From the NCBI GenBank assembly GCA_900545265.1, contig UQYI01000003.1:8932-72931 (forward strand): a stretch of DNA of 64,000 nucleotides, given 5' to 3'. The position numbers and the translations under genes are program-made. The notes below the pieces were generated by a model that worked only from the letters and a program-made list of their open reading frames with translations, was not told the DNA's origin and ran no database searches. Numbering within the stretch: the stretch's first letter is position 1; every line of letters begins with the position of its first letter. This stretch comes from an uncultured Eubacteriales bacterium. Its GTDB lineage: Bacteria; Bacillota; Clostridia; Christensenellales; CAG-138. Of this stretch, positions 1,367 through 42,243 are shown one piece after another.

Positions 1367-3664
1367 TTACTCTATCCCTACCACCATCACCGTCATGTCA
1401 TCCTGCTGCCCCCGGGCTCTGGCCGCTTCCAGCACCGTTTGGGCCAGCTCCCGGTCTCCGCCCCGGTTCCATTGGGTCAACGCTTCCTCCATTTCCTTCC
1501 CCAGCAGATCATAGACCCCGTCGGTCACAAAGATCAGCTTATCCCGCCGCCGCAGATGCAGCCGCTGCACGGAGGGCTTGGCCTCATCTACGATACCGCA
1601 GGGCAGGGATTCTCCAAAGAGAAACCGTGGCACTCCGCCCCGCAGCAGACAGGTAGGGGGTGCGCCGAACTTTACCAACTCCGTTTCCCCCGTGCCCAGA
1701 TCGATACTGGCTGTATCCAATGTAGCATATATTTCCTCCCGAGCCCGATGCAGCAGCAGGCGATTCACATTTTCATATACCAGCTCCCGTTCCAATCCTG
1801 CCTGCAGCATGGTAAAGAGCAGATGAATGGCCTCCCGGCTTTCCGCCATGGCCTTTTCCCCGCTGCCCATGCCGTCGGATACGGCATAAACCACCCGGCC
1901 ATTGGGCAGCCGGTATTCCCCCGATGCATCCCCGGAGGGCACGCCGGGGTTTTCCGGCAAAGCCGCCACAGCCATGGAAGCTCGCAGCGCCGCCCCTTCC
2001 TCCATCTCCAGCAGCAGGGTATTTTCCCTTCGCCGGGCTTCCAGCAGCCGCATGGTCTTTCCCGTCAGCTGACTCACCGCCTGTACCGCCTGACCGGAGG
2101 ATATGTCCTTATCCGCCTCCAGCTTCAGTCGCAGCAGCAGTCTTCCCCCGGGGTAAAAGGCATCTAAAGCCGCCGGCCGAAACCCTTTACTCTGAAGGCC
2201 GCCGAACAGCCGGGTCTCCAGCTTGTCATCCACCCAGCAGTCCTCTCTCAGCCTTGCAGACTGCCGGAACAGGGCGGCCGCCAGCCCGCTGAGCTGGCGA
2301 TTCATATAGGCATACTGATCCATGGCCCGCCGCAGCCCTGCTTCATGGGCAAAGGCCTGATTATAAGATTGATAGGCGGCGGACATCATTTCATGAAAAT
2401 ACCGGCAGCGGACGTCCATAGGCGGCAAAGGACGCACGCTCTCCCCCCGGTCATAGGCAGGCAAAAGGGAAAGGATCGCTTTTTCCATGGCAGCTCCGTC
2501 CCGCCAGCAGAGTATCCTGGCTTCACAGCCCATACATACCTGCCGGGCTGCCCCCAGCGACCAGGCCTCCAGATATTGCCCCGCCGTCTCTCCCGGAGTG
2601 AACAGACCGGAAAGCTCCCCGCACAAACGGGCGGTCTGCTCCATCTCCCGGGCGGTACGTTCCTGAAGCCGCCGGATAGCCAAAGCCGTATTTTCCCGGC
2701 GGCTTCGGTTTTCGCTGAGGATACCTTCCAGCAAATTCAGCCATTCCCCCGGTAAGGCTCCGAAAAGCATAGCGGCGATCAGCGCATTCTCCATGGTCAC
2801 CGGGCCCCGGTTCCCCGTCAGAAATCCATAGGCAACGGCCTGACTCAACAAAAATGCAATAAGCAGATAACCCCGGCCATAGGGTGCCGTCAGCGCACAG
2901 AACAGCGCCGTCAGCGCATAGGTGCCAAGCAGTTCCGGCCCCTTATCCATGCCCATGGCCAGCACGGCTCCCAGCAATACGCTGACCCCTATGCCCCCCG
3001 GCCCTCGGGCATAAGTCAACAGCAGCATACACACATACAGCAGCACCGCCGGCAATGACAGGTTCCCCGCCTCCAGCCCCCGGAGCCCAAGCAGCAGCAA
3101 TCCCGTCAGCACGCACAGGCACAGCTGCTCCGACCCGCCCAAGGGGTTTTGCAAAGAAAATCTGCGGAAAATGGCGTAACACCGCAGCAGCAGAAACAAA
3201 CACAATACGGATAAGGCTGCCGACAGCAATGCATACGCCGCAGAAGCCCCCGTACCGTCTATTTGAAAAGGCAGTACCGCTCCCTCCGTTAGCACAAACA
3301 GGAGCAGCCGCCCGCTTACCGAAGGCTGTCGAACGAATATCCCGGCCAGGATCAGAAGCAGGGAAAATACCGCCCCTGCGATCATAACGCCCCAAAGCGG
3401 CTGCCCCTCCAGCAGAGCGCCCAGCAGCACCCCCGCCCCGGGAAACAGGGGATGAATGCCGCAAAATGCCGCTGCTCCCAGAACACTCAATCCAAAAGGT
3501 GCGCACAGATTCCCCAGCCGGATCCGGCCCAGAAGCAATGCGCAAAGAAAGAGCCCCAGCTCCATGCAGCACCGGCTGCTCCCTTGCAGCAGGGGGCCTG
3601 CTTCCATGGTGCTGCGCAGCCGTGCATACAGCGATTTTCGTTTGTTGCCTTTTCTGTTTGACAT
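1367..3664 (-). CDS. spoIIE: Stage II sporulation protein E (membrane PP2C phosphatase)
   Basis: 765-aa ORF with about 10 N-terminal TM segments. The C-terminal PP2C domain reads YAVSDGMGSGEKAMAESREAI...FVTDGVYDLL...QQDDMTVMVVGIE. Confidence 0.9.
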   Translation of the reverse strand: MSNRKGNKRKSLYARLRSTMEAGPLLQGSSRCCMELGLFLCALLLGRIRLGNLCAPFGLSVLGAAAFCGIHPLFPGAGVLLGALLEGQPLWGVMIAGAVFSLLLILAGIFVRQPSVSGRLLLFVLTEGAVLPFQIDGTGASAAYALLSAALSVLCLFLLLRCYAIFRRFSLQNPLGGSEQLCLCVLTGLLLLGLRGLEAGNLSLPAVLLYVCMLLLTYARGPGGIGVSVLLGAVLAMGMDKGPELLGTYALTALFCALTAPYGRGYLLIAFLLSQAVAYGFLTGNRGPVTMENALIAAMLFGALPGEWLNLLEGILSENRSRRENTALAIRRLQERTAREMEQTARLCGELSGLFTPGETAGQYLEAWSLGAARQVCMGCEARILCWRDGAAMEKAILSLLPAYDRGESVRPLPPMDVRCRYFHEMMSAAYQSYNQAFAHEAGLRRAMDQYAYMNRQLSGLAAALFRQSARLREDCWVDDKLETRLFGGLQSKGFRPAALDAFYPGGRLLLRLKLEADKDISSGQAVQAVSQLTGKTMRLLEARRRENTLLLEMEEGAALRASMAVAALPENPGVPSGDASGEYRLPNGRVVYAVSDGMGSGEKAMAESREAIHLLFTMLQAGLERELVYENVNRLLLHRAREEIYATLDTASIDLGTGETELVKFGAPPTCLLRGGVPRFLFGESLPCGIVDEAKPSVQRLHLRRRDKLIFVTDGVYDLLGKEMEEALTQWNRGGDRELAQTVLEAARARGQQDDMTVMVVGIE

Positions 3665-11339: not shown

Positions 11340-11873
11340 TTATACGTTGTCTATTTCCTCCGGAACGGGCATCTCCGGCAGGGCGGGCAGTTCCTCCAGA
11401 GAATGGAGCCGGAACTTGTGCAGAAAGGCATCGGTCGTTACAAAAAGCAGAGGCCGGCCGGGCACATCCTTGCGGCCGGAAACGGAAATGAGCCCCAGCT
11501 TTTGCAGCTGGGTTACGGCATATTCGCACCGCACCCCCCGTATCTCCTCTATCTCCCCCCGTGTCACGGGCTGTTTATAGGCCACTACAGCCAAAGTTTC
11601 CAGCATGGAGGCGGAGACGGAACGTTTTTGTATGGGCGCAAGGACTTTTTCCACCGCTTCCCCATTTTCCGGAGCGGAAGTCAGCTGCGCGGTTTTGTCT
11701 GTATACAGCAGCCGCAGCCCCCTGCCCTCCCGCAGATAGCTTTCTTCCAACCGTGCAAGGGCTTTGCCCAGAGTATCCGGATCCGTTTCCAGCCCGGCAC
11801 ACAGGGCCGTCAGCGCCACCGGTTCTCCCGCCACAAAAAGGATGGACTCCAGCCTGCTTTCCAATTCCGTCAT
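11340..11873 (-). CDS. scpB: Segregation and condensation protein B
   Basis: 177-aa ORF MTELESRLESILFVAGEPVALTAL...LETLAVVAYKQPVTRGEIEEIRGV..., the ScpB signature. It follows scpA. Confidence 0.9.
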   Translation of the reverse strand: MTELESRLESILFVAGEPVALTALCAGLETDPDTLGKALARLEESYLREGRGLRLLYTDKTAQLTSAPENGEAVEKVLAPIQKRSVSASMLETLAVVAYKQPVTRGEIEEIRGVRCEYAVTQLQKLGLISVSGRKDVPGRPLLFVTTDAFLHKFRLHSLEELPALPEMPVPEEIDNV

Positions 11874-11876
11874 AGA

Positions 11877-12632
11877 TCAGTTTTCCTCGTCCATATAACT
11901 GCCCTCTTCTTCCTCCCGCAGAGTCAATGCCTTCAGTCGGATAGGGGCGAAAGTATCTTTCTGCATTACATGCACCTCTCCCCGGGCCATGAGCTCCAGC
12001 ACCGCCATAAAGGTGACCACCAGCTCCATGCGGGTAGGGCTGCCCGAAAACAGTTCGTAAAAATTCAAGGAAGCTTTTTCCCGAAGGCGGCGGCGAATCA
12101 TCCCTGAACGCTCCCGAACGGTATATACGTCCTGCCGCACCCGGTGAAGCAGCGCCTCTTTTTCTTCGGGCTCCCGGCTAAGCGCCGACAAAAAGGCCAG
12201 CAGCAGGGTATCGGCCTCCACATCCGGTAGGTCTGCCTCCACCGGTGGAGCGGGCAGATCCTCTGGCAATCTGGCAAAAGCTTCCCGACCCCGCTCAAAA
12301 AGACGGCCCAGATCCTCCCCGGCCGTTTTGAATACCTGATACTCCTTCAACCGGCGGATAAAGGCCTGCTCCGGATCTTCCTCTTCTTCCTGCAAGGGGG
12401 GCGGAGCAGGAAGCAGCCGGCGGGATTTGATATACAGCAGCTGGGCCGCCACCAGCAGAAAGTCACTGGCTCCGTCCATCTGCTCCTTGTCCATGTCTCC
12501 CACCGCCTGCAGATACTGGGCGGTGATCTCGGATACGAATATATCCTCGATCCGCAGCTGTGCCTTCTGGATCAGCTGTAAAAGCAGATCCAGGGGGCCG
12601 TCAAACTGTCCGGTGTGTACCTGATACTCCAT
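11877..12632 (-). CDS. scpA: Segregation and condensation protein A
   Basis: Start set at MEYQVHTGQFDGPLDLLLQLIQKAQLRIEDIFVSEITAQYL. This ATG overlaps the TGA of the upstream gene by 1 nt; the ORF track extends to 12788. Confidence 0.85.
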   Translation of the reverse strand: MEYQVHTGQFDGPLDLLLQLIQKAQLRIEDIFVSEITAQYLQAVGDMDKEQMDGASDFLLVAAQLLYIKSRRLLPAPPPLQEEEEDPEQAFIRRLKEYQVFKTAGEDLGRLFERGREAFARLPEDLPAPPVEADLPDVEADTLLLAFLSALSREPEEKEALLHRVRQDVYTVRERSGMIRRRLREKASLNFYELFSGSPTRMELVVTFMAVLELMARGEVHVMQKDTFAPIRLKALTLREEEEGSYMDEEN

Positions 12633-13288
12633 CAAAGCAGCCTCAGGATCCAGTTGTATACCAGATTCTGCGCCCAGTTCAGAGGATACTGCAATACTCC
12701 CAGCCACAGCAGCGCCACCAGTATATACTTGCCGTAACGATGCATGAAATCCCTTATGTTGTGAGGCAGATGCCGTCCCATAACACATTCCAGCACATGG
12801 CTGCCGTCCAGCGGCGGAATGGGGATCAGGTTAAACACGCACAGGCAGGTGTTCATACTGATAATGTTGAAGAAGATGTTTACAAAGGCTTCGTTGTACA
12901 GCAGCGCATAATTGCTTCTGGCCAGCAGCACAAACAGCCCTGAAAACACCAGCACGATCAAAACGTTCATGGTCACCCCCGCCAGGGAAACGATTATATT
13001 GTCCCGGCGGAAGTTCTTGAAGTTCCGATAATTGACGGGCACAGGCTTGGCCCAGCCAAAGCCCAGCAGCAGCATGCACAGCACACCCAGGGGATCAAAG
13101 TGATCCAGGGGGTTCAATGACAAACGCCCCATGTTTTTGGCCGTGGGATCCCCCAACCGGTAGGCCGCATAGGCATGTCCCCATTCGTGGAAAGTGAGCC
13201 CCAGGAGCACTGCCGGAAGCATGTACAAAAGCTGCAGCGGATTTTGAAAATAATACAGGATTCTGTTCATGGTTTCAGTATACCCCAC
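12632..13288 (-). CDS. Site-2 protease family (M50) zinc metallopeptidase
   Basis: 218-aa polytopic ORF with HEWGH (HExxH) and the second motif FNLIPIPPLDGSHV. An alternative start exists at MNRILYYF (13270). Confidence 0.75.
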   Translation of the reverse strand: MGYTETMNRILYYFQNPLQLLYMLPAVLLGLTFHEWGHAYAAYRLGDPTAKNMGRLSLNPLDHFDPLGVLCMLLLGFGWAKPVPVNYRNFKNFRRDNIIVSLAGVTMNVLIVLVFSGLFVLLARSNYALLYNEAFVNIFFNIISMNTCLCVFNLIPIPPLDGSHVLECVMGRHLPHNIRDFMHRYGKYILVALLWLGVLQYPLNWAQNLVYNWILRLL

Positions 13289-13436
13289 CCGAAGCCAAAG
13301 GGCAAGAAAAATCCCCGCGAATCCCGCTTCTTGCGCATAAGCGGATCCCCTTGCACTGGCAAAACAGGCATTGACGCCGATTCAGGCTGCGGATACCGGG
13401 AAGTTCGAAGGAACGTTAATTCACGGGAAGCGGGGG

Positions 13437-13522
13437 TGGGGCGCACTGCGTGCCTGACGGCACGCCTGCGGGGCATTTGCCCCGCAGAGTTCCGGCGGCA
13501 AAGCCGCCGGAACGTGCGCCCC
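13437..13522 (+). repeat. Intergenic multi-hairpin repeat, copy 1 of 3
   Basis: GGGGCGCAC [GCGTGCC-TGAC-GGCACGC] [CTGCGGGGC-ATTT-GCCCCGCAG] [GTTCCGGCGGC-AAA-GCCGCCGGAAC] GTGCGCCCC. Near-identical copies occur at 46473 and 54186. Confidence 0.9.
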
Positions 13523-13650
13523 GCCCATGTATACGGCTCGGCCCCGTGCCCTAACGTCCCAGCCTCCGCCGCAGGAAAATCTCTTTCCTCCGAAAGAGCA
13601 GCTGCATGTTCCTTCTTGTACGTTTTTCCGCAGACCCGTGTTTTTCCCGT

Positions 13651-14778
13651 TCAGCTGCGTATATACGCTTCCATGCACTGCCGGAGAAGCGCCAGATAAC
13701 TCCTGGATTCCACATCCTTCCCTGGGTACAGATCAATCGTGCAAAGCACCTCCTCCCCCGCCCGGAATGTCACCGTTCCTACAGGGGTATCCGTCCGCAG
13801 GGGTGCCGTCAAAGGTTCCGTCACCTCCAGTGTCTTTTCCAGGGCCTCCTCTCCTTTGGGCCGTAGAAAAGCTACGGTATCGTGGCTCACCAGATCCACC
13901 TGTTTTACACTGCCGCTACGCACCTCCACCCCTTCCGCCAGAGGACTGCCCGCCCGGGCGGCGGTGACCTGCCGATAGTTGGCGAATACATGATCCAGCA
14001 ATTCCCCTGCAATGGCAAAGCGCTTCTGACTGTTAGGGGCCCCCAACACCACGGCTACCGCCAGAGTATCATTCTTTTTGGCAGCAAAGACCCCGCAGTA
14101 TCCATCCTGTGCAGAGGATCCTGTCATCAGGCCAAAGCAGCCGCCGTAACTGCGCAGCATTCGATTGGCATTGACCAATTCCGTCCGCCGTCCCCCCGGA
14201 TGGACGATCTCATCCATATATACGCCTGCCCAGCGGCAAAAAGAGGGGCTCCGGGCCGCCTCCAGCCCCAGCAGCGCCAGCTCTCCGGCGGTAAAGGTCA
14301 TGCCCGCCCCGGTGCAGTCGCTGAATTCCTTTTCTACCCCCAGTTCCCGGCAGGTAACGGAGATGTTCTGACAAAACACGTTCTCCGAACCGAAGGCGTT
14401 TTCTCCCAGCGTACACAAGGCATCTCCGGCAGAAAGCATCACCGCCGCTTTAAGCAGTTCTCCGGCAGCTATCTGCTCCCCTGCTTCCAGAAAAGCCGTA
14501 GGCCCGGATATTCCCGCTGCCCGGCGGCTGACGCTCATCAAAGTGTTTTCCTCAATGACTTCGTTGTCAAAGGCTCTGCACAGGGTCAGTACGGCGGGAA
14601 GCTTGCAAAGCCCTGCCGCTGGCAGAGACACGTCTCCCTTCTGCTCCAGCAAAGGCGTCTGCTGTCCTTCTCCCACCACCAAACAGCTTTTACAATCATA
14701 TCCTTCCGCCAACGCCACCGCAGGAACAACCGCCAGCAGGCAAAGGCAGGCAACAAACAGGCACAAAAAACGGCGCAT
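13651..14778 (-). CDS. Secreted S11 (PBP5/DacB-like) DD-carboxypeptidase homologue with degenerate catalytic motifs
   Basis: 375-aa ORF with a signal peptide (MRRFLCLFVACLCLLAVVPAVALA). It aligns by eye to DacF/DacB throughout, including the C-terminal beta-sandwich domain. However, SxxK reads GLCK, SGN reads SAG and KTG reads MTG. Confidence 0.7.
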   Translation of the reverse strand: MRRFLCLFVACLCLLAVVPAVALAEGYDCKSCLVVGEGQQTPLLEQKGDVSLPAAGLCKLPAVLTLCRAFDNEVIEENTLMSVSRRAAGISGPTAFLEAGEQIAAGELLKAAVMLSAGDALCTLGENAFGSENVFCQNISVTCRELGVEKEFSDCTGAGMTFTAGELALLGLEAARSPSFCRWAGVYMDEIVHPGGRRTELVNANRMLRSYGGCFGLMTGSSAQDGYCGVFAAKKNDTLAVAVVLGAPNSQKRFAIAGELLDHVFANYRQVTAARAGSPLAEGVEVRSGSVKQVDLVSHDTVAFLRPKGEEALEKTLEVTEPLTAPLRTDTPVGTVTFRAGEEVLCTIDLYPGKDVESRSYLALLRQCMEAYIRS

Positions 14779-14833
14779 AGAACCCTCCTTAACAGAGGGT
14801 ATGCGCCGAAAAGATCATCTATACAGGGAACTG

Positions 14834-16003
14834 TCAGCGGAGCATCTCACTCAGGAAGGAGGTACCCGCCGTCCAGGGCGTACCGGTCAGATATTCATAC
14901 ACAGTGGAGGCAATATCGCAAAAGCTCTTTCTTACCCCCAGATCCACCCCCTGCTTCACGGGCTGGCCCAATACCAGCAGAGGGATATATTCCCGGGTAT
15001 GATCCGTGCCTGCGTAGGTGGGGTCACAGCCATGATCTGCCGTAATCATAAGGATATCCTCTGCCCCCATGGCTTCCACAAGTTCCGGCAGCCGGACATC
15101 AAAATATTCCAGAGCCCGGGCGTATCCTTCCACATCCCGCCGATGGCCGTACAGCATGTCCGTATCCACCAGATTTGTAAAGATAAAGGCGCCTTTCCCT
15201 TCTTCTATCAGCCGTCTGGTAGCCTCAATGCCCGTGTGGTTGTTTTTGGTATGATCCACCATGTCAATTCCCCTGTGGCAGAAGATATCCTCGATCTTGC
15301 CCACGGCCACTACCGGCAGCCCCCTGCCGTGGAGTCCATCCAGAATGGTATCCCCAAAGGGCGGGATGGCATAGTCCCGGCGGTTTTCCGTGCGGGTATA
15401 CTGCCCGGAGGTGCCGGTAAAGGGCCGGGCGATGACCCTGCCCACCAGATTGTCTCCCACCAGCATCTCCCGGGCGATCTGACAAATGCGGTACAGCTCC
15501 TCCAGCGGGATAACGCTCTCATGAGCGGCTATCTGAAAGACGCTGTCTGCGGAGGTATAAACGATGGGCTTGCCGGTTTTGACATGCTCATCGCCCAGCC
15601 GCTGGATGATCTCCGTGCCGGAAGCTACACAGTTGCCCAAAGTACCCCGGCCGATCTTCTGTTCAAACGCCTCCATGACCTCTTTTGGGAAGCCATGAGG
15701 ATAAGTCTTAAAAGGATGGGTCTGTACCAGTCCTGCGATCTCCCAGTGCCCGCAGGTAGTGTCCTTGGCATGGGTGGTTTCGGCGCACTTTCCGTAAGCC
15801 CCCTCCACCTGTCCCTCCCAGGGCGTCACCAGGCTGCCCTGAATGTTCCCCAGTCCATACCGGCGCATATTGGGTATGTTCATGGGCCGCCGCTGCCATA
15901 TATGGCCGATGGTATTGCAGCCTTTATCGCCAAATTCCGCCGCATCGGGCATTTCACCGATGCCTGCGCTGTCCAGAACGATCAGAATGACTCTTTTGCT
16001 CAT
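14834..16003 (-). CDS. deoB: Phosphopentomutase
   Basis: 389-aa [38 protein letters not shown]...[10 protein letters not shown]..., the canonical DeoB sequence. Confidence 0.95.
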
Positions 16004-20959: not shown

Positions 20960-22443
20960 ATGTAAAAAGAAAAGAATCGAAATCTTGTTTTTATCCTTTC
21001 CGTGTGCCTGACTCTGCTCATCTGTCTATGGAGCATACTGCTGCCGGATTCATTCGGCACGGCGGCAGGGAACAGCATGCGCTTTCTTACCACCAACTTT
21101 GCCTGGCTTTACTGCCTGGCCATGACCCTGTTCGTAGCGTTCTGCCTGTGGATAGGGTTGTTCTCCAAATACAGAAATATACCGCTGGGGCCGGACGGAG
21201 CCAAGCCGGAATACAGCAAAAGCGCCTGGTTCTCCATGCTCTTCTGCGCCGGTATGGGCGTAGGTCTGGTCTTTTGGGGAGCGGCAGAGCCCATGAACTA
21301 TTTTGCCGCGCCCATAGGCGGCCTGCAGAGCGGCACCGGCGAGGCCATGCGTTTTGTCTTTGCCCGCTCTTTTCTTCATTGGGGCATTCACCCCTGGGCC
21401 AATTATTCCGTGCTGGCGCTGGCACTGGCCTATATGCAGTTCCGCAAAGGGCAGCCGGGGCTCATCAGTTCCGTGTTCATCCCCCTCATCGGGGAAAAAA
21501 GAGCCCGAGGCTGGTTGGGAAAAACGGTGGATGTGCTCTCCGTCTTTGCTACGGCCGCAGGGGTAGCCACTTCTTTGGGGCTGGGGATCCTGCAGCTTAA
21601 CGCCGGGCTGCACTTTCTCACCGGGCTGCCGGAAACGGCTCTGGTACAGCTCTTATTCTGTTTCTGGCGGCGGTGTATATCCTTACGGCAGTAGTGGGCA
21701 TTGAAAAGGGCATGAACACCGTCAGCAAGCTGAATATCCGGGTCAGCATGGGCGTCCTGCTTCTGTTGGTGGTTATCGGCCCCACGGTGCCCATTCTCAA
21801 CAACCTGCTGAAAGGCGCAGGCGCCTATTTAAGCTCTCTGCTTTCCATGACTACAGAGGTAGGAGCCTTTGGAGACGAGGGTTGGTATCGCACCTGGACC
21901 GTATTCTATTGGGCCTGGTGGATTGCCTGGGCTCCCTTTACGGGCTCCTTTATAGCCAGGATCTCCCGCGGCCGCACCATTGGGGAATTTATAAAAGGCG
22001 TTATGTTCCTGCCCGCCGGTTTTTCGGTGATCTGGTTCACTGTATTCGGCACGCTTGGTATGCGCCTGGATATTTCCGTTGTCAAAGAAGCCATAAAGTC
22101 CACTTCCACCGCATTATTTGTGGTATTGCAGCAGTATCCCCTGGGCACGGTGCTGTGCGCCGTTATGGCGCTGCTGATCTTTACCTTTCTGGTCACGGCT
22201 TCCAACTCCGCTACCTATGTGCTGGGCATGTACAGTGAAGGGGGCACTTTGCAGCCTTCCAACAGGAGTAAGATCATATGGGGCGCTCTCATTGCGGCGC
22301 TGGCTGCGATAATGATGCTGGGCACGGGCAACGGCCTTTCCATGCTGCAAACCTTATCCATTGTGGCGGCCTTCCCCTTCATTTTCATCATGCTGGCAGC
22401 TATGCCCGCCCTTGTAAAGGCGCTGAAAGAAGAAAAGCTTTGA
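20960..22443 (+). pseudogene. BCCT-family (betaine/carnitine/choline) transporter, disrupted by a codon-2 TAA and a frameshift near 21650
   Basis: ATG 20960 is followed by TAA 20963. Family-like sequence occupies ORFs 21002-21694 and 21673-22443 in two frames (...FCAGMGVGLVFWGAAEP...; ...VFYWAWWIAWAPFTGSFIARISRGRTIGEF...). Confidence 0.8.
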
Positions 22444-31950: not shown

Positions 31951-32770
31951 TCACTTTGCAGCGGACGGTCCCTGGTCATGCAGGAGCCGCCGCTGTTTTT
32001 TATATACACCGTTCACCAGCAGCAGCGAAAGCAGCGTGGCAGCGGCACAGAAAAGATAGTATCCGGTATAGCTGCCGGTCGCATCCGCCAACAGCCCCGG
32101 CAGCGGAGACATGCACAGCCCGCCCAGAGTACAGCAGGACTGAAGCTTTTTCAGTGTGGAGGCATACTGGGCTTCATCCGTCAGTTCCGCCACCCACATG
32201 GGGGTTCCTACGGTGCTGATGGTAAAGCAGCCCAGCCCCAGACATATGGCCACCGCATATACCGGCAAAGGCGATATGCCGTTGAAGCATACCACGCCCA
32301 CATGGCCCAGTATCAGCATCCCGTAATACAGCAGGTTGGCTTTTTCCACACCCATGGCGTCTGCCGCCACGCCGTAAAGGGGCTTGCCTACCATGTTCAT
32401 AAGGCCGTTAAGGGCCATGACGGAGCTGACAAACACCACGTCATACCCGGCCGCAATGGTTGAAAAGTTAAAATTATCCCAGCTGCAATAGGTAAAGAAG
32501 CCTGCGCAGACCATGGCAATGCCAAGCAGGAGCACTACCTGCTTCCCTACCGGGGGAAGCTTTTTCTTTTCTTTCTGAACGGAATGTTCCCACGCCCCAT
32601 AGGGTGCCAGCTGCAGCGCCTCCGGGCTTTCCCGCAGGAAAAGGAGCACCACCAGCCCCAGCAGGGCAAAGAGCCCGCCCATGATCAGTTCCGCCGTCAG
32701 AACACCTTTTTCGGATACGATCCCGGTAACGGGTACAGACAGAAGCAGCGAAGTCACTCCTGAGCTCATG
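31951..32770 (-). pseudogene. MFS transporter, 5'-truncated and fused in frame to the reductase remnant
   Basis: This is the C-terminal ~270 aa of ORF 31951-32952. It has 2 TM helices, a central loop (RESPEALQLAPYGAWEHSVQKEKKKLPPVGK) and 6 TM helices. About 4 N-terminal TM helices are absent. The junction position is approximate (32766-32787). Confidence 0.65.
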
Positions 32771-33149
32771 GCACATATAAAGGGCACATCCTCTTTGGGA
32801 TCGGCATTTTCGGCTACAAACACCAGGTTGATGAGCTTTGCATAGGGAGACATCTCGGCCGCCGGGCCGGACATATCCACCATACCGTTCATGCCCTGCC
32901 GGCTGTGCAGCCCGGCGCCCAGCACGCACATACCGTCCAGTGCGTAGGTCACGCCGCTGCCTTGACGGGAATGATGCGGGTGCTGTCTCCCGGCCGGGCA
33001 ATGTGCAGGGAAACGTTTTTCAATTTTCCGTCCTTATTCAGCGCCTCTATGGCTTCTTCCCGGTTTACGGTGAGGATCCCGTCCGCAAAGGCGTTTTCTT
33101 CACCGAACCGAACGTCTTTGACGCTGAAATGTCCGATCTCCAATTTCAT
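32771..33149 (-). pseudogene. N-terminal remnant of a GrdE/GrdI-type reductase proprotein subunit, in two frames
   Basis: MKLEIGHFSVKDVRFGEENAFADGILTVNREEAIEALNKDGKLKNVSLHIARPGDSTRIIPVK is followed by a stop. Family-like sequence then resumes in another frame: GSGVTYALDGMCVLGAG...GMVDMSGPAAEMSPYAKLINLVFVAE. Confidence 0.7.
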
Positions 33150-39544: not shown

Positions 39545-40318
39545 ATGGAGGTGTTCATTCTGGATCCGTCTTTATATCCCATGCTTTTCAAGCGCAAATC
39601 CTTTCATCTGTTCCGCAACTTGGGGAATGCTTCCATGACGGAAGACGATATTGCCGATATCCGCCGTGCTTTTACCGGCTTTACTCCTCTGTACCCGGAT
39701 ATCCGGGTATGCATGGAGCTGGTGCCTGCTGCCGAAACCTCCTGCCCGACCGGAGCGGAATATTGTGCCCTTTTCTACAGCGAAGATAAAGATGGTTATC
39801 TGCGGAACATCGGCTATTTGGGAGAGCAGCTGGATCTGTATCTGGCCAAAAAGAATATCGCCTCCCTTTGGTGCGGCCTGGGCAAGCCCCATCGCCCGGC
39901 ACCGGAGGGCATGACCTACTGCATCATGATCGTTATGGCGAAAGTATCCGGGCCGGAAAAGTTTCGCAAAGATATGTTCAAGGCAAAACGAAAGCCGATA
40001 GAGGAGATCTGGCAGGGAGATGCCATCCCTGGCGTTACGGACATTGTCCGCTTTGCTCCCAGTGCCTGCAACAGTCAACCGTGGAAAACGGAATATGCAA
40101 ACGGCATTATGCAGGTCTTCCGATACCAGAAGCCCGGCCGGGCAGGCATTATGAATCAGGAGCACGCCGCCTACTTCAACCGCATAGACATGGGTATCTA
40201 CCTGTGTTTTCTGGATCTGTGTCTGGCTCACGAAGGCATCCCGTTTTCCCATGTTATGCTGCCTGACAGTGTCGGTGCGGTTTTTACACCCATCGCCAGC
40301 TATATGCTGCAGCGATAA
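39545..40318 (+). CDS. Nitroreductase family protein
   Basis: 257-aa ORF with LFKRKSFHLFRN near the N-terminus and RFAPSACNSQPW. The exact start is uncertain; ATG 39545 has no SD, and GGAGGTG sits at codons 2-3. Confidence 0.7.
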   Translation: MEVFILDPSLYPMLFKRKSFHLFRNLGNASMTEDDIADIRRAFTGFTPLYPDIRVCMELVPAAETSCPTGAEYCALFYSEDKDGYLRNIGYLGEQLDLYLAKKNIASLWCGLGKPHRPAPEGMTYCIMIVMAKVSGPEKFRKDMFKAKRKPIEEIWQGDAIPGVTDIVRFAPSACNSQPWKTEYANGIMQVFRYQKPGRAGIMNQEHAAYFNRIDMGIYLCFLDLCLAHEGIPFSHVMLPDSVGAVFTPIASYMLQR

Positions 40319-40324
40319 CGACTT

Positions 40325-40360
40325 AGCCCCGGAGCCGTACCGTTCCGGGGCTTCTTTTCT
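40325..40360 (+). terminator. Intrinsic terminator after the nitroreductase gene
   Basis: AGCCCCGGA-N10-UCCGGGGCU followed by UCUUUUC. Confidence 0.7.
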
Positions 40361-40535
40361 ATAACTGTATTATATGGGCATCCATTTTTGAACATTGCAG
40401 ATAATTGTATGAAAATGGATAAAATATTGCTATGTTATTTTGCAACTTCTTTTCCCGTTCATATATCAGCCACATTTGTGCATTGTTTTTACAGTTTATT
40501 CATGAAAATGAAGGGGACTTCGCCGGATTTACACA

Positions 40536-40563
40536 TTGAAAAACAGCAAAAAATTGTTACAAT
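40536..40563 (+). promoter_or_regulatory. Sigma-A promoter upstream of the Spo0A-like pair
   Basis: TTGAAA (40536-41), 16-nt spacer, TGT-TACAAT (40558-63), inside an AT-rich spacer. Confidence 0.55.
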
Positions 40564-40627: not shown

Positions 40628-41449
40628 ATGGAATGGGGAGACGAGAAATTGAAGACTCTACAGATCGTAAGCGCCGACCAGTCTCTGGCGGAAGCCTTGA
40701 TAGCTGCCTCGGCATCCTTACACCAGTTCCACCCAGTACCGGTACTTGCCGGCGGACGAGCCTTTGCAGAAGAACTGCTGCTCACTTCTCCGGATGCTGT
40801 GCTGCTGGATATGGACCTGCCCGACATGGACGCATTGGAAGCTTTGGAACTGTTGGATGGCCTGCCCCTTGCCACACGGCCCAGACTGTTCCTCATGACC
40901 GGTCCCTACGGCAAAATGGGAGAGGCGTATCTGAGCCACCGGATACACTACTGTTTCCTGAAGCCTCTGGATCCAGAAAGCGTACTGCACACTATGATCC
41001 GGCTATTGGGCGACTGCCCTGCCGTACCGCCGGTAGTGCGTCCCTGCTACAGACTTGTGGACCAGCTGGCCACCGGGATACTCTTTTCTCTGGGCGTTCC
41101 GCCCCAGCTTCAGGGCTATCATCTGCTCAGAGAAGCCATCAAGCTGGTGACCTGGGTAGAAAACCCCGCCAGTCTTTCCGTCATGAAGGATATCTATCCC
41201 GCTGCGGCAGATCTGTGCGGCTGTACCGTGGGCATGGCGGAACACGCCATGCGCCATGCCATAGAAAGCGCCTGGATGCGGGCAGACCTGGATACCCTGC
41301 AGCGCTTCTTCGGTTATACGGTGGGCGCTCACCGGGATACGCCTTCCAATTCCGCTTTTATCTATATGGCGGCAGACAGGGTACGTATGGAATTGACCCA
41401 ACTATGGCCCGGGCTCATGTATGAGCGCAGAGAGGCGGCCTGCGTATGA
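40628..41449 (+). CDS. Spo0A-like response regulator (receiver plus Spo0A-type effector domain)
   Basis: The receiver reads ...LQIVSADQS...VLLDMDLPDMDALE...FLMTG...CFLKP. The effector reads GVPPQLQGYHLLREAIKLV...MAEHAMRHAIESAWMRADLDTLQRFFGYTV...PSNSAFIYMAADRV. Start is either ATG 40628 or TTG 40649 (GGGGAG SD); the ORF track begins at 40388 in AT-rich non-coding-looking DNA. Confidence 0.75.
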   Translation: MEWGDEKLKTLQIVSADQSLAEALIAASASLHQFHPVPVLAGGRAFAEELLLTSPDAVLLDMDLPDMDALEALELLDGLPLATRPRLFLMTGPYGKMGEAYLSHRIHYCFLKPLDPESVLHTMIRLLGDCPAVPPVVRPCYRLVDQLATGILFSLGVPPQLQGYHLLREAIKLVTWVENPASLSVMKDIYPAAADLCGCTVGMAEHAMRHAIESAWMRADLDTLQRFFGYTVGAHRDTPSNSAFIYMAADRVRMELTQLWPGLMYERREAACV

Positions 41450-42243
41450 TGCTGATCGCCCTTCAATGCGGCAAAGAATGGACGAACCGCCTTCTTGCCG
41501 CCGCCCGGGATATGCCCTGGTGTCAGTTGGCCACCGGCTTTGTTCAAGCCCCCTGTGCTGTGATCCGGGATGGTCTGGCAGATACTTCCGTCTCCCTTTA
41601 TCCTCAAAATAAGGATATTCCTCTGTTTTTTATCAGTTCCCGGGAAGCACCTGCTCCTGCAGATTCCCATGCAGAATATGTCTTTTCCCCCAATGTTACG
41701 GCGCAGGGCGTCCTCCGCCACATCGGCGCACTGCTGGCCGATCCTTCCGGGCAGCTCCTTCCTGAAAAGCAGCGCCTGCGGGAAATGGTCTCTCTCAGTC
41801 TGGAAAAGCTGGGCATCGGTTCCCATCTGCTGGCTCACCGCTATTTGCAGGAGGGCGTAGTCTTTCTTTTTGACACCCCGTATCCCGGCCGCATACGGCT
41901 CATGGCCAAGCTCCATGAACATCTGTCGCAATGCTTTGATACTTCTCCCGTAATGGTGGACAGAGCCATTCGCCATGGCGTAGAGGTGTGCTGGAAGAAA
42001 AGTTCCCCGGAGCTTCAGCGGGCTTATTTCGGCTACAGTGCTCAGGATAAACGAGGCATGCCCACCAACGGAGAATTTCTGTTTGCCCTGTATGAGCGGC
42101 AGCGGCAGTTGTTGTTTGCCGACCGGGGCCGGGAAGACTTTTTCCGCTGTCTGGAAAAAGTCCGCTCCCGCAGCGGCTGCCGCCTGTTTCTGGAAGAAGA
42201 ACCCAGTTCCCCCTCTTCCGGGCAGAAAGCGCAGCTTCCCTGA
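41446..42243 (+). CDS. Spo0A-effector-domain protein with a degenerate (pseudo-)receiver
   Basis: 265-aa ORF that is ATGA-coupled to the upstream gene. The C-terminal half reads GIGSHLLAHRYLQEGVVFL...MVDRAIRHGVEVCWKKSSPELQRAYFGYS...PTNGEFLFALYER. The N-terminal half (MMLIALQCG...) lacks the acidic pocket and the conserved Lys. Confidence 0.7.
   Translation: MMLIALQCGKEWTNRLLAAARDMPWCQLATGFVQAPCAVIRDGLADTSVSLYPQNKDIPLFFISSREAPAPADSHAEYVFSPNVTAQGVLRHIGALLADPSGQLLPEKQRLREMVSLSLEKLGIGSHLLAHRYLQEGVVFLFDTPYPGRIRLMAKLHEHLSQCFDTSPVMVDRAIRHGVEVCWKKSSPELQRAYFGYSAQDKRGMPTNGEFLFALYERQRQLLFADRGREDFFRCLEKVRSRSGCRLFLEEEPSSPSSGQKAQLP

Follow-up and report, generated by a model that had tools for sequence, protein, structure and literature searches.

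A 64,000-nt stretch of contig UQYI01000003.1 (assembly GCA_900545265.1) from an uncultured Eubacteriales bacterium, referred to here as the window, carries at 40628-42243 a tandem pair of genes that both encode a Spo0A-type effector domain. Spo0A, the master switch of endospore formation, is also used as its universal marker, and the DNA-recognition helix of the protein is regarded as essentially invariant. Gene 1 (40649-41449, + strand) encodes a protein of 266 aa that, from profile searches, alignments and a comparison of starts, is most likely a divergent Spo0A orthologue. Its receiver domain (REC) occupies approximately 40649-41002, with the codon of the acceptor Asp at 40808-40810, and its Spo0A_C effector domain lies at 41075-41380 and includes the recognition helix GMAEHAMRHAIESAW at 41231-41275 (all + strand). 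Gene 2 (41446-42243, + strand) encodes a protein of 265 aa that is best read, from profile searches, AlphaFold2 (AF2) models, Foldseek and hhalign, as a Spo0A paralogue with a pseudo-receiver. On the same strand, its receiver-like N-terminal domain (N-domain) at 41446-41742, with the codon of D42 at 41569-41571, is followed by Spo0A_C at 41797-42096, which contains the recognition helix SPVMVDRAIRHGVEVCW at 41944-41994. The tail of gene 2 beyond residue 224 was poorly conserved and was modelled with low confidence. The peptide strings quoted in a preliminary description of this DNA were present in both open reading frames (ORFs).

Gene 1 probably starts at TTG 40649 and not at ATG 40628, the start used in the preliminary description, which lies in frame 7 codons upstream. 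TTG 40649 is preceded at a distance of 8 nt by the Shine-Dalgarno sequence GGGGAG (40635-40640, + strand), MKTLRIV opens every relative, and the NCBI gene model has 266 aa. Metagenome assemblies contain longer versions of gene 1, called at 315 and 353 aa, which were rejected as over-extensions. The gene 1 stop codon TGA (41447-41449) and the gene 2 start codon ATG (41446) share the tetranucleotide ATGA at 41446-41449 (+ strand, from the ORF coordinates), indicating translational coupling of the two genes, as had been proposed. The 4-nt overlap was found in 10/10 related loci and also in L026 and L027, two loci of a more distant subclade.

An intrinsic-terminator-like hairpin at 40325-40352 (+ strand; an 11-bp stem, 8 of its pairs GC, followed by a T tract) closes the upstream nitroreductase-like gene (ORF 39545-40318) and thus sets the pair apart as a separate transcription unit. 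The pair also has its own promoter, as the preliminary description had it: a sigma-70-type element with an extended -10, TTGAAA-16-TGtTACAAT, is located at 40536-40563 (+ strand; 10/12 matches plus TG), and TTGAAA-17-TATTAT was found at the corresponding position, approximately 100 nt before the start codon, in 10/10 relatives. A small hairpin occurs just 3' of the -10, in the first ~25 nt of the predicted 5' untranslated region (5'UTR) of gene 1 (L008-L021, alignment columns 9-30). It was rejected as a structured RNA, having 6 pairs only and a consensus energy of -1.7 kcal/mol, with compensatory changes in 4/6 pairs.

Domain content of the two proteins

Both genes carry Spo0A_C (PF08769; Pfam cut-off 25), in agreement with the preliminary description. 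Gene 1 scored 92.4 bits (E 2e-26) and gene 2 scored 69.5 bits (E 2.8e-19), and both matched the solved Spo0A effector domains 1LQ1 and 1FC3, with E values of 1.6e-21 for gene 1 and 1e-12 for gene 2. The two effector domains were only ~21% identical to each other, which indicates that the duplication is old and not recent; overall, the extra copy was ~21-27% identical to its neighbour.

The receiver of gene 1 scored 26.7 bits in the window, under the Pfam cut-off of 30.2, and the receivers of its relatives scored 41-48 bits. When a profile of the N-domains of the gene-1 family was aligned by hhalign with canonical Spo0A receivers, a probability of 98.7% was obtained. The β1 Asp (D10) and the acceptor Asp (D54) were both present in 53/53 family members, and the Lys of the Lys-Pro motif (K105-P106) was K in 45/53 and R in 5/53. 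Of the β1 acidic pair, the first Asp is replaced by Ala in gene 1, so that one Asp is left. The conserved receiver Thr is present in the window copy and is Ala in 40/53 family members. On these residues gene 1 is probably phosphorylatable. The earlier view of it as a true response regulator has D10, D54 and K105-P106 on its side, and the sub-threshold Pfam score of the window copy and the frequent Ala in place of Thr against it.

The gene 1 segment DLDTLQRFFGYTV, which we take from established work on B. subtilis to be the sigma-A-activating region of Spo0A, is identical in canonical clostridial Spo0A. Over the whole protein, gene 1 was ~33% identical to canonical Spo0A, and its TIGR02875 score of 116.5 bits falls short of the cut-off of 200. 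On this profile, gene 2 reached 57.9 bits, the gene-1 relatives 137-143 bits, and the canonical protein P0227 290 bits. Because gene 1 falls under this cut-off, PGAP gives it a domain-only name, 'Spo0A C-terminal domain-containing protein'. Proteins of the gene-1 type, with REC plus Spo0A_C, were 52-57% identical, or 43-50% in a second tier, and were clearly set apart from canonical Spo0A.

No receiver was found in gene 2 by sequence profile search with Pfam and TIGR02875. The structures predicted by AF2 for the window protein and a rumen relative (mean predicted local distance difference test score, pLDDT, 76 and 75, respectively) both displayed an N-terminal β1-α1-β2-β3-β4-α4-β5-α5 arrangement followed by a confident Spo0A_C domain. 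In the model of the relative, more helices were resolved and the receiver-like N-domain was complete, with five strands and the intervening helices. In Foldseek searches the gene-2 models matched Spo0A effector domains with target-normalised TM-scores of 0.77-0.85. Beyond Spo0A_C, nearly all matches were to response regulators or to receiver domains on their own (target-normalised TM-score 0.4-0.6), among them the atypical receivers RitR (5U8M), FrzS and MtbGlnR. The hhalign comparison of the gene-2 N-domain with the gene-1 receiver gave an E value of 6e-5 and a probability of 65%.

In the profile alignment and in the AF2 model, D42 of gene 2 (AVIRD), at the end of β3, sits opposite the acceptor of gene 1 (AVLLD). 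The acceptor column of the gene-2 family was always acidic, with E in 48/61 and D in 13/61 members. At the β1 position the window copy has G9, whereas D or E is found there in 49/61 family members, and the Pro of its KP motif has no Lys before it. The best reading of gene 2 is a receiver-like fold that would lack phosphorylation chemistry, a 'dead receiver', because the β1 acid and the Lys are gone and because the acceptor is an unphosphorylatable Glu in most relatives. The preliminary description had reached the same view and was right about the loss of the β1 acid and the Lys; its statement that there is no Asp at the acceptor position was wrong in detail, D42 being placed there by the alignment and the model. 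The best conserved piece of the N-domain was β5-α5 (0.82 vs 0.5-0.65 elsewhere), which is part of the face used for dimerisation by most response regulators. The gene-2 counterpart of the sigma-A-activating segment is diverged (KKSSPELQRAYFGYSA vs DLDTLQRFFGYTV).

Gene-2-type proteins were 38-59% identical and formed ~60 clusters of 250-280 aa, in which Spo0A_C was the sole domain detected. A search of 1.84 billion proteins gave only 24 representatives at E<=1e-30, which makes the family a narrow one. The protein sequence of gene 2 itself was found identical on 357 independent metagenome contigs. A phage or mobile origin was considered and rejected, since the neighbours of gene 2 are chromosomal and no gene-2 relatives were found in a viral contig collection. 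With its 100-residue N-domain, gene 2 is not of the effector-domain-only phage type.

In the representative library, Spo0A_C was also encountered outside these two families. Five proteins (P0440, P0447, P0450, P0459 and P0460) were single polypeptides of 390-450 aa with two to four Spo0A_C-like stretches, and many proteins of 115-190 aa consisted of Spo0A_C only. The effector domain has thus radiated into architectures beyond REC plus Spo0A_C. In the homologue searches with the two genes, three short proteins (P0066, P0067 and P0197) were annotated with a PF01522 polysaccharide deacetylase or a PF00117 glutamine amidotransferase domain in addition to Spo0A_C; they could be real fusions or artefacts of gene calling near contig ends.

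Recognition helices and candidate DNA sites

The helix SRVERAIRHAIEVAW is kept in Spo0A of B. subtilis and in 41/41 canonical clostridial Spo0A proteins. Both recognition helices of the pair diverge from it, as was stated in the preliminary description. Gene 1 has MAEHAMRHAIESAW where the canonical helix has the invariant RVERAIRHAIEVAW; helices of the gene-1 type read SMAEHAMRHAIE(C/S)AW, and R214 was replaced by H in 53/53 members. Gene 2 of the window carries VMVDRAIRHGVEVCW at the position of canonical SRVERAIRHAIEVAW; helices of the gene-2 type read VMVDRA(M/I)RHGVE(S/V)CW, and E213 was replaced by D in 60/61. The gene 2 helix retains R214, R217, H218, E221 and W224, and 11 positions of its 17 residues were invariant across 61 clusters.

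The 2002 work of Zhao and colleagues on the structure 1LQ1 is said to place the base contacts with the 0A box in E213, R214 and R217, and Spo0A dimers in that structure reportedly sit on direct repeats in tandem, spaced by about one turn of the helix. Contacts to the 0A box TGTCGAA are made at G2, C4 and G5 (PMC3485338). The preliminary description had pointed to 0A-like boxes; TGTCGAA was not enriched in the window, where it occurred at chance frequency (4 found vs 4.4 expected), and there was none in the promoter of the pair.

A different heptamer, TATTCAY, was found upstream of gene 1 in relatives (L011-L019) as exact direct repeats 11 nt apart. Such repeats, of which L012 9468-9485 is an example, form two pairs that flank the promoter: one lies ~150 nt ahead of the gene-1 start and ~40-50 nt 5' of the -35, the other in the 5'UTR, ~38 nt ahead of that start. 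The tandem form had no other occurrence in each 20-kb locus, and the promoter and the TATTCAY boxes were conserved upstream of gene 1 at a synonymous divergence (dS) of ~0.4-0.6. Judged by position and conservation, TATTCAY-N4-TATTCAY is a candidate operator, perhaps an autoregulatory one, and it is unlike the classical 0A box. In the window, the heptamer TATTCAT at 40497-40503 (+ strand), 39 nt upstream of the -35, is the putative operator.

The sequence TTCGCCG occurs by the -35 of the gene-1 promoter (40519-40525, + strand) and by the -35 of the spoIIE promoter (3706-3700, - strand). As a degenerate 0A box it was rejected as too weak: it agrees with TTCGACA, the complement of the 0A box, at 5/7 positions, by eye and without statistics.

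Conservation, synteny and sporulation context

A scan of species-representative genomes with the gene-2 family yielded 13 loci. They all belonged to metagenome-assembled genomes (MAGs) of uncultured rumen or gut bacteria, labelled Christensenellales, Christensenella or Clostridiales; the window species itself was not among them. A gene of the gene-1 type stood directly before the gene-2 type in every locus with enough sequence. The tandem pair was also present at L008, L009, L026, L027 and L028, and several homologue pairs of the two types shared one contig. Both genes are under purifying selection. Gene 1 had a ratio of nonsynonymous to synonymous substitution (dN/dS) of 0.15-0.25; the values for gene 2 were 0.1-0.2 in the C-terminal domain (dS 0.3-0.8) and 0.4-0.55, at the widest 0.4-0.75, in the N-domain. 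The near-identical metagenome copies were picked by exact gene-2 identity, and polymorphism among them is uninformative.

In Bacilli and Clostridia, the canonical neighbourhood of spo0A is recN-spoIVB-spo0A. Nine loci of the rumen clade displayed the order spoIVB, gene-1 type, gene-2 type, deoB, dacB, M50 peptidase, scpA, scpB, and the more distant locus L028 displayed recN (TIGR00634, 523 bits, cut-off 408), spoIVB, gene-1 type and the start of a gene-2-type ORF. The spoIVB/recN synteny of the relatives indicates that the gene-1 family occupies the place of spo0A. Neither spoIVB nor recN was present in the 64-kb window, as reported in the preliminary description; in the relatives the pair follows spoIVB, and once recN as well. 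The deoB-dacB-M50 peptidase-scpA-scpB cluster, which is directly downstream of the pair in the relatives, lies in the window at 11340-16003 on the - strand, ~24 kb from the pair. With this block far off on the other strand and spoIVB absent, the pair has been displaced by rearrangement.

The probable SpoIVB of the window organism was found in a 226-member cluster that includes MDD7396503.1, approximately a thousand accessions from MDD7397494.1 of gene 2. The spoIVB gene of probably the same organism (L023-L025, 10001-11185) stands between rpoA-rplQ and a type I-C CRISPR-Cas system, in a locus with a GC content of 53-54% and a tetranucleotide correlation with the window of 0.88-0.92. No Spo0A_C-like sequence was found within 10 kb of this spoIVB. 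The region beyond the relocated gene is variable, with type I-C CRISPR-Cas, Fic and PBECR4 genes.

The canonical Spo0A clusters retrieved together with gene 1 had accessions from other MAGs and at most 55 members, vs 146-467 for the proteins of this abundant organism. The gene-1 types of three subclades all scored 116-143 bits on TIGR02875, which argues for a trait of the whole lineage and not a feature of one extra copy. Gene 1 is thus most likely the fast-evolved spo0A orthologue of the lineage itself, not an accessory copy, and most likely its only receiver-bearing Spo0A. The preliminary description had named, as an outcome that would overturn its own view, gene 1 as the sole orthodox spo0A beside a common and already described neighbour. 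This outcome was half borne out: gene 1 is most likely the orthologue, but its sequence is unorthodox (116 vs 200 bits), and gene 2 is common in the clade, but literature searches returned no description of it. Nor did those searches turn up an account of this pair, of any Spo0A paralogue with a pseudo-receiver, of spo0A genes overlapping in a bicistron, or of a recognition helix altered throughout a clade.

Early sporulation genes are located near the start of the window. The gene spoIIE (1367-3664, - strand) is followed by spoIIGA (424-1362, - strand), and a sigma-factor gene comes next, just beyond the window start. Together, the three genes indicate that the early sporulation apparatus has been retained. 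The direct linkage of spoIIE and spoIIGA, 5 nt apart, is unusual.

Two further genes of the window are interrupted. A BCCT betaine/carnitine/choline transporter gene at 21002-22443 (+ strand) consists of two overlapping ORFs, which cover profile positions 7-223 and 230-485, and is apparently a frameshift or pseudogene. An MFS/Gly_reductase-annotated gene at 31951-33149 (- strand) is split into 333 plus 66 aa in the window and in some metagenome copies, and is intact elsewhere as one 389-aa ORF (L001 506-1704 and L004 535-1704 were compared). Its frameshift is polymorphic within the species.

Proposed mechanism, rival explanations and comparison with known systems

We lean, at slightly better than even confidence, towards a reading in which gene 1 is the lineage's own spo0A and gene 2 is a clade-specific tandem duplicate with a pseudo-receiver, both being made from one mRNA in fixed proportion and acting as partners. 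Gene 1 would be switched on by phosphorylation of its conserved Asp and, through the kept DLDTLQRFFGYTV, would serve as a transcriptional activator as well as a repressor. Gene 2 would not be switched by phosphorylation, given the missing β1 acid and Lys in the window and the Glu acceptor of most relatives, and the 4-nt overlap would let it be made together with gene 1 from the same mRNA at a fixed ratio. It may be a constitutive DNA-binding partner of gene 1, a role suggested by its strongly constrained helix-turn-helix and its conserved β5-α5 face. In the simplest form the two proteins would pair through the receiver face as a head-to-tail heterodimer on composite tandem direct repeats, for which the candidate sites are the TATTCAY-N4-TATTCAY boxes around the pair's own promoter in relatives. 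The outcome would be an altered specificity or threshold of the Spo0A switch.

A bolder form of this partner mechanism is put forward tentatively, as a possibility that we would not bet on. In it, Spo0A would be heteromeric, with a phosphorylatable R214→H subunit and a co-translated pseudo-receiver E213→D subunit, whose dead acceptor is Glu or Asp, arranged head-to-tail on composite direct repeats, for which TATTCAY-N4-TATTCAY is the candidate. If this were true, both G contacts of TGTCGAA would be replaced in the candidate sites, and a regulator regarded as invariant among endospore formers would have been rewired in this clade, in the subunits that make it up as well as in its DNA code.

Several points weigh against these proposals. 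The spoIVB locus was tied to the window organism by accession proximity, GC content and tetranucleotides and not by a shared contig, and a third, canonical spo0A may lie elsewhere, as the evidence comes from loci and not from a whole genome. The N-domain of gene 2 was modelled with moderate confidence (pLDDT 55-80) and its receiver fold matches were weak (E 5e-3 to 0.3). The window copy retains an Asp at the acceptor position, which by its sequence could allow residual phosphorylation. The TATTCAY boxes belong mainly to the rumen clade, and the window has one exact copy and one 6/7 copy, the latter in the 5'UTR. The heterodimer itself was drawn solely from co-translation, strict co-occurrence and β5-α5 conservation.

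A serious rival, although we consider it unlikely, keeps gene 1 as the orthologue and makes gene 2 an antagonist or buffer: a constitutively DNA-binding but non-activating look-alike that would occupy the sites or titrate gene-1 dimers and so set a threshold for phosphorylated gene 1 to overcome. It draws on the retention of R214, R217, H218, E221 and W224 in the gene 2 helix, on the diverged sigma-A-activating counterpart (KKSSPELQRAYFGYSA vs DLDTLQRFFGYTV) and on phage receiver-less Spo0A domains proposed to override host control (PMC10294663). However, coupling fixes the ratio of gene 2 to its target in every genome and precludes separate regulation, and the helices differ at base-contacting positions (EH vs DR), which points to different half-sites rather than competition for one. 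A partner is favoured over an antagonist because of the strict co-occurrence, the invariant coupling and these differing helix substitutions.

It is rather unlikely that the lineage no longer sporulates and that the pair is a remnant repurposed for another stationary-phase or host-adaptation programme, with relaxed constraint explaining the divergence. Classifiers based on gene content predict that most Christensenellales MAGs do not sporulate (PMC12536801), many non-spore-formers retain Spo0A (Galperin et al. 2022), and an otherwise invariant helix is changed in both proteins. Yet the SpoIIE, SpoIIGA, SpoIVB, YunB and DacB-type genes are intact, and dN/dS of 0.1-0.25 in the DNA-binding domains argues for a new constraint and not for relaxation. 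The classifier predictions may also be biased, because Spo0A of the gene-1 type falls under annotation thresholds.

The reading advanced in the preliminary description, in which both genes are accessory Spo0A paralogues beside an orthodox spo0A and compete or supplement at 0A-box-like sites, has become improbable. The score of 116 bits on TIGR02875 against the cut-off of 200, the lack of spoIVB and recN in the window, and evidence that stops short of whole genomes would all accommodate it, and genomes with two to three spo0A paralogues are known (Galperin et al. 2022, 10.1101/2022.02.25.481979; C. thermocellum, PMC4890492). On the opposite side, the pair fills the recN-spoIVB-spo0A slot in relatives, the probable spoIVB of the window organism has no adjoining spo0A, the canonical clusters retrieved have at most 55 members against 146-467, and scores of 116-143 bits extend over three subclades as a lineage-wide trait.

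That gene 2 is a decaying duplicate without function, as its least conserved part, the N-domain, and the loss of the Lys and the β1 acidic residue in the window copy might suggest, is effectively refuted by the selection data: ORFs were intact at every locus, 11 helix positions were invariant in 61 clusters, dN/dS of the C-domain was 0.1-0.2, and one protein sequence was found on 357 independent metagenome contigs.

A whole clade carries a probable spo0A orthologue that has an altered recognition helix and lies under the curated threshold for annotation. Among its members are many rumen MAGs and an uncultured human-gut species that ranks among the more prevalent ones in public metagenomes, and marker-based surveys may call these organisms Spo0A-negative and non-sporulating. 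The obligatory, coupled pseudo-receiver paralogue would be a natural experiment in which a two-component output is split into signal-responsive and signal-blind subunits, and in this pair the co-variation of recognition-helix residues with operator sequence can be tested on a concrete example.

Compared with canonical Spo0A (P06534; TIGR02875; 1QMP, 1FC3, 1LQ1), gene 1 shares REC plus Spo0A_C, the acceptor Asp, the Lys-Pro motif and DLDTLQRFFGYTV, and its relatives share the recN-spoIVB-spo0A position. It differs in its identity of ~33%, the altered helix, the single β1 Asp, a Thr that is not kept in the family, and an overlapping second Spo0A_C gene that always trails it. More than one Spo0A_C gene per genome is also found in other Clostridia that have second spo0A paralogues: two spo0A copies occur in 10/118 Spo0A-encoding genomes and three in Anaerostipes hadrus (Galperin et al. 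2022, 10.1101/2022.02.25.481979). The second spo0A of C. thermocellum (Clo1313_0637), the one such copy with a detailed description, is 56% identical to the primary copy (PMC4890492), whereas the two genes described here are ~21-27% identical and translationally coupled.

Human-gut phages carry receiver-less Spo0A effector domains that have been proposed to act on the host regulon (Schwartz et al. 2023, PMC10294663). Gene 2 resembles them in a Spo0A_C that, judging from its residues, would be uncoupled from phosphorylation control, but it has a full-length receiver-derived N-domain and stands in a chromosomal housekeeping and sporulation context. In the atypical response regulators (the RitR family, FrzS and MtbGlnR), as in gene 2, the receiver fold is kept and the residues of the phospho-chemistry are lost; there, the receiver serves as a dimerisation or sensing module. 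Unlike these regulators, gene 2 has Spo0A_C as its output domain, mostly has a Glu at the acceptor position in its family, and is the obligate neighbour of a phosphorylatable paralogue.

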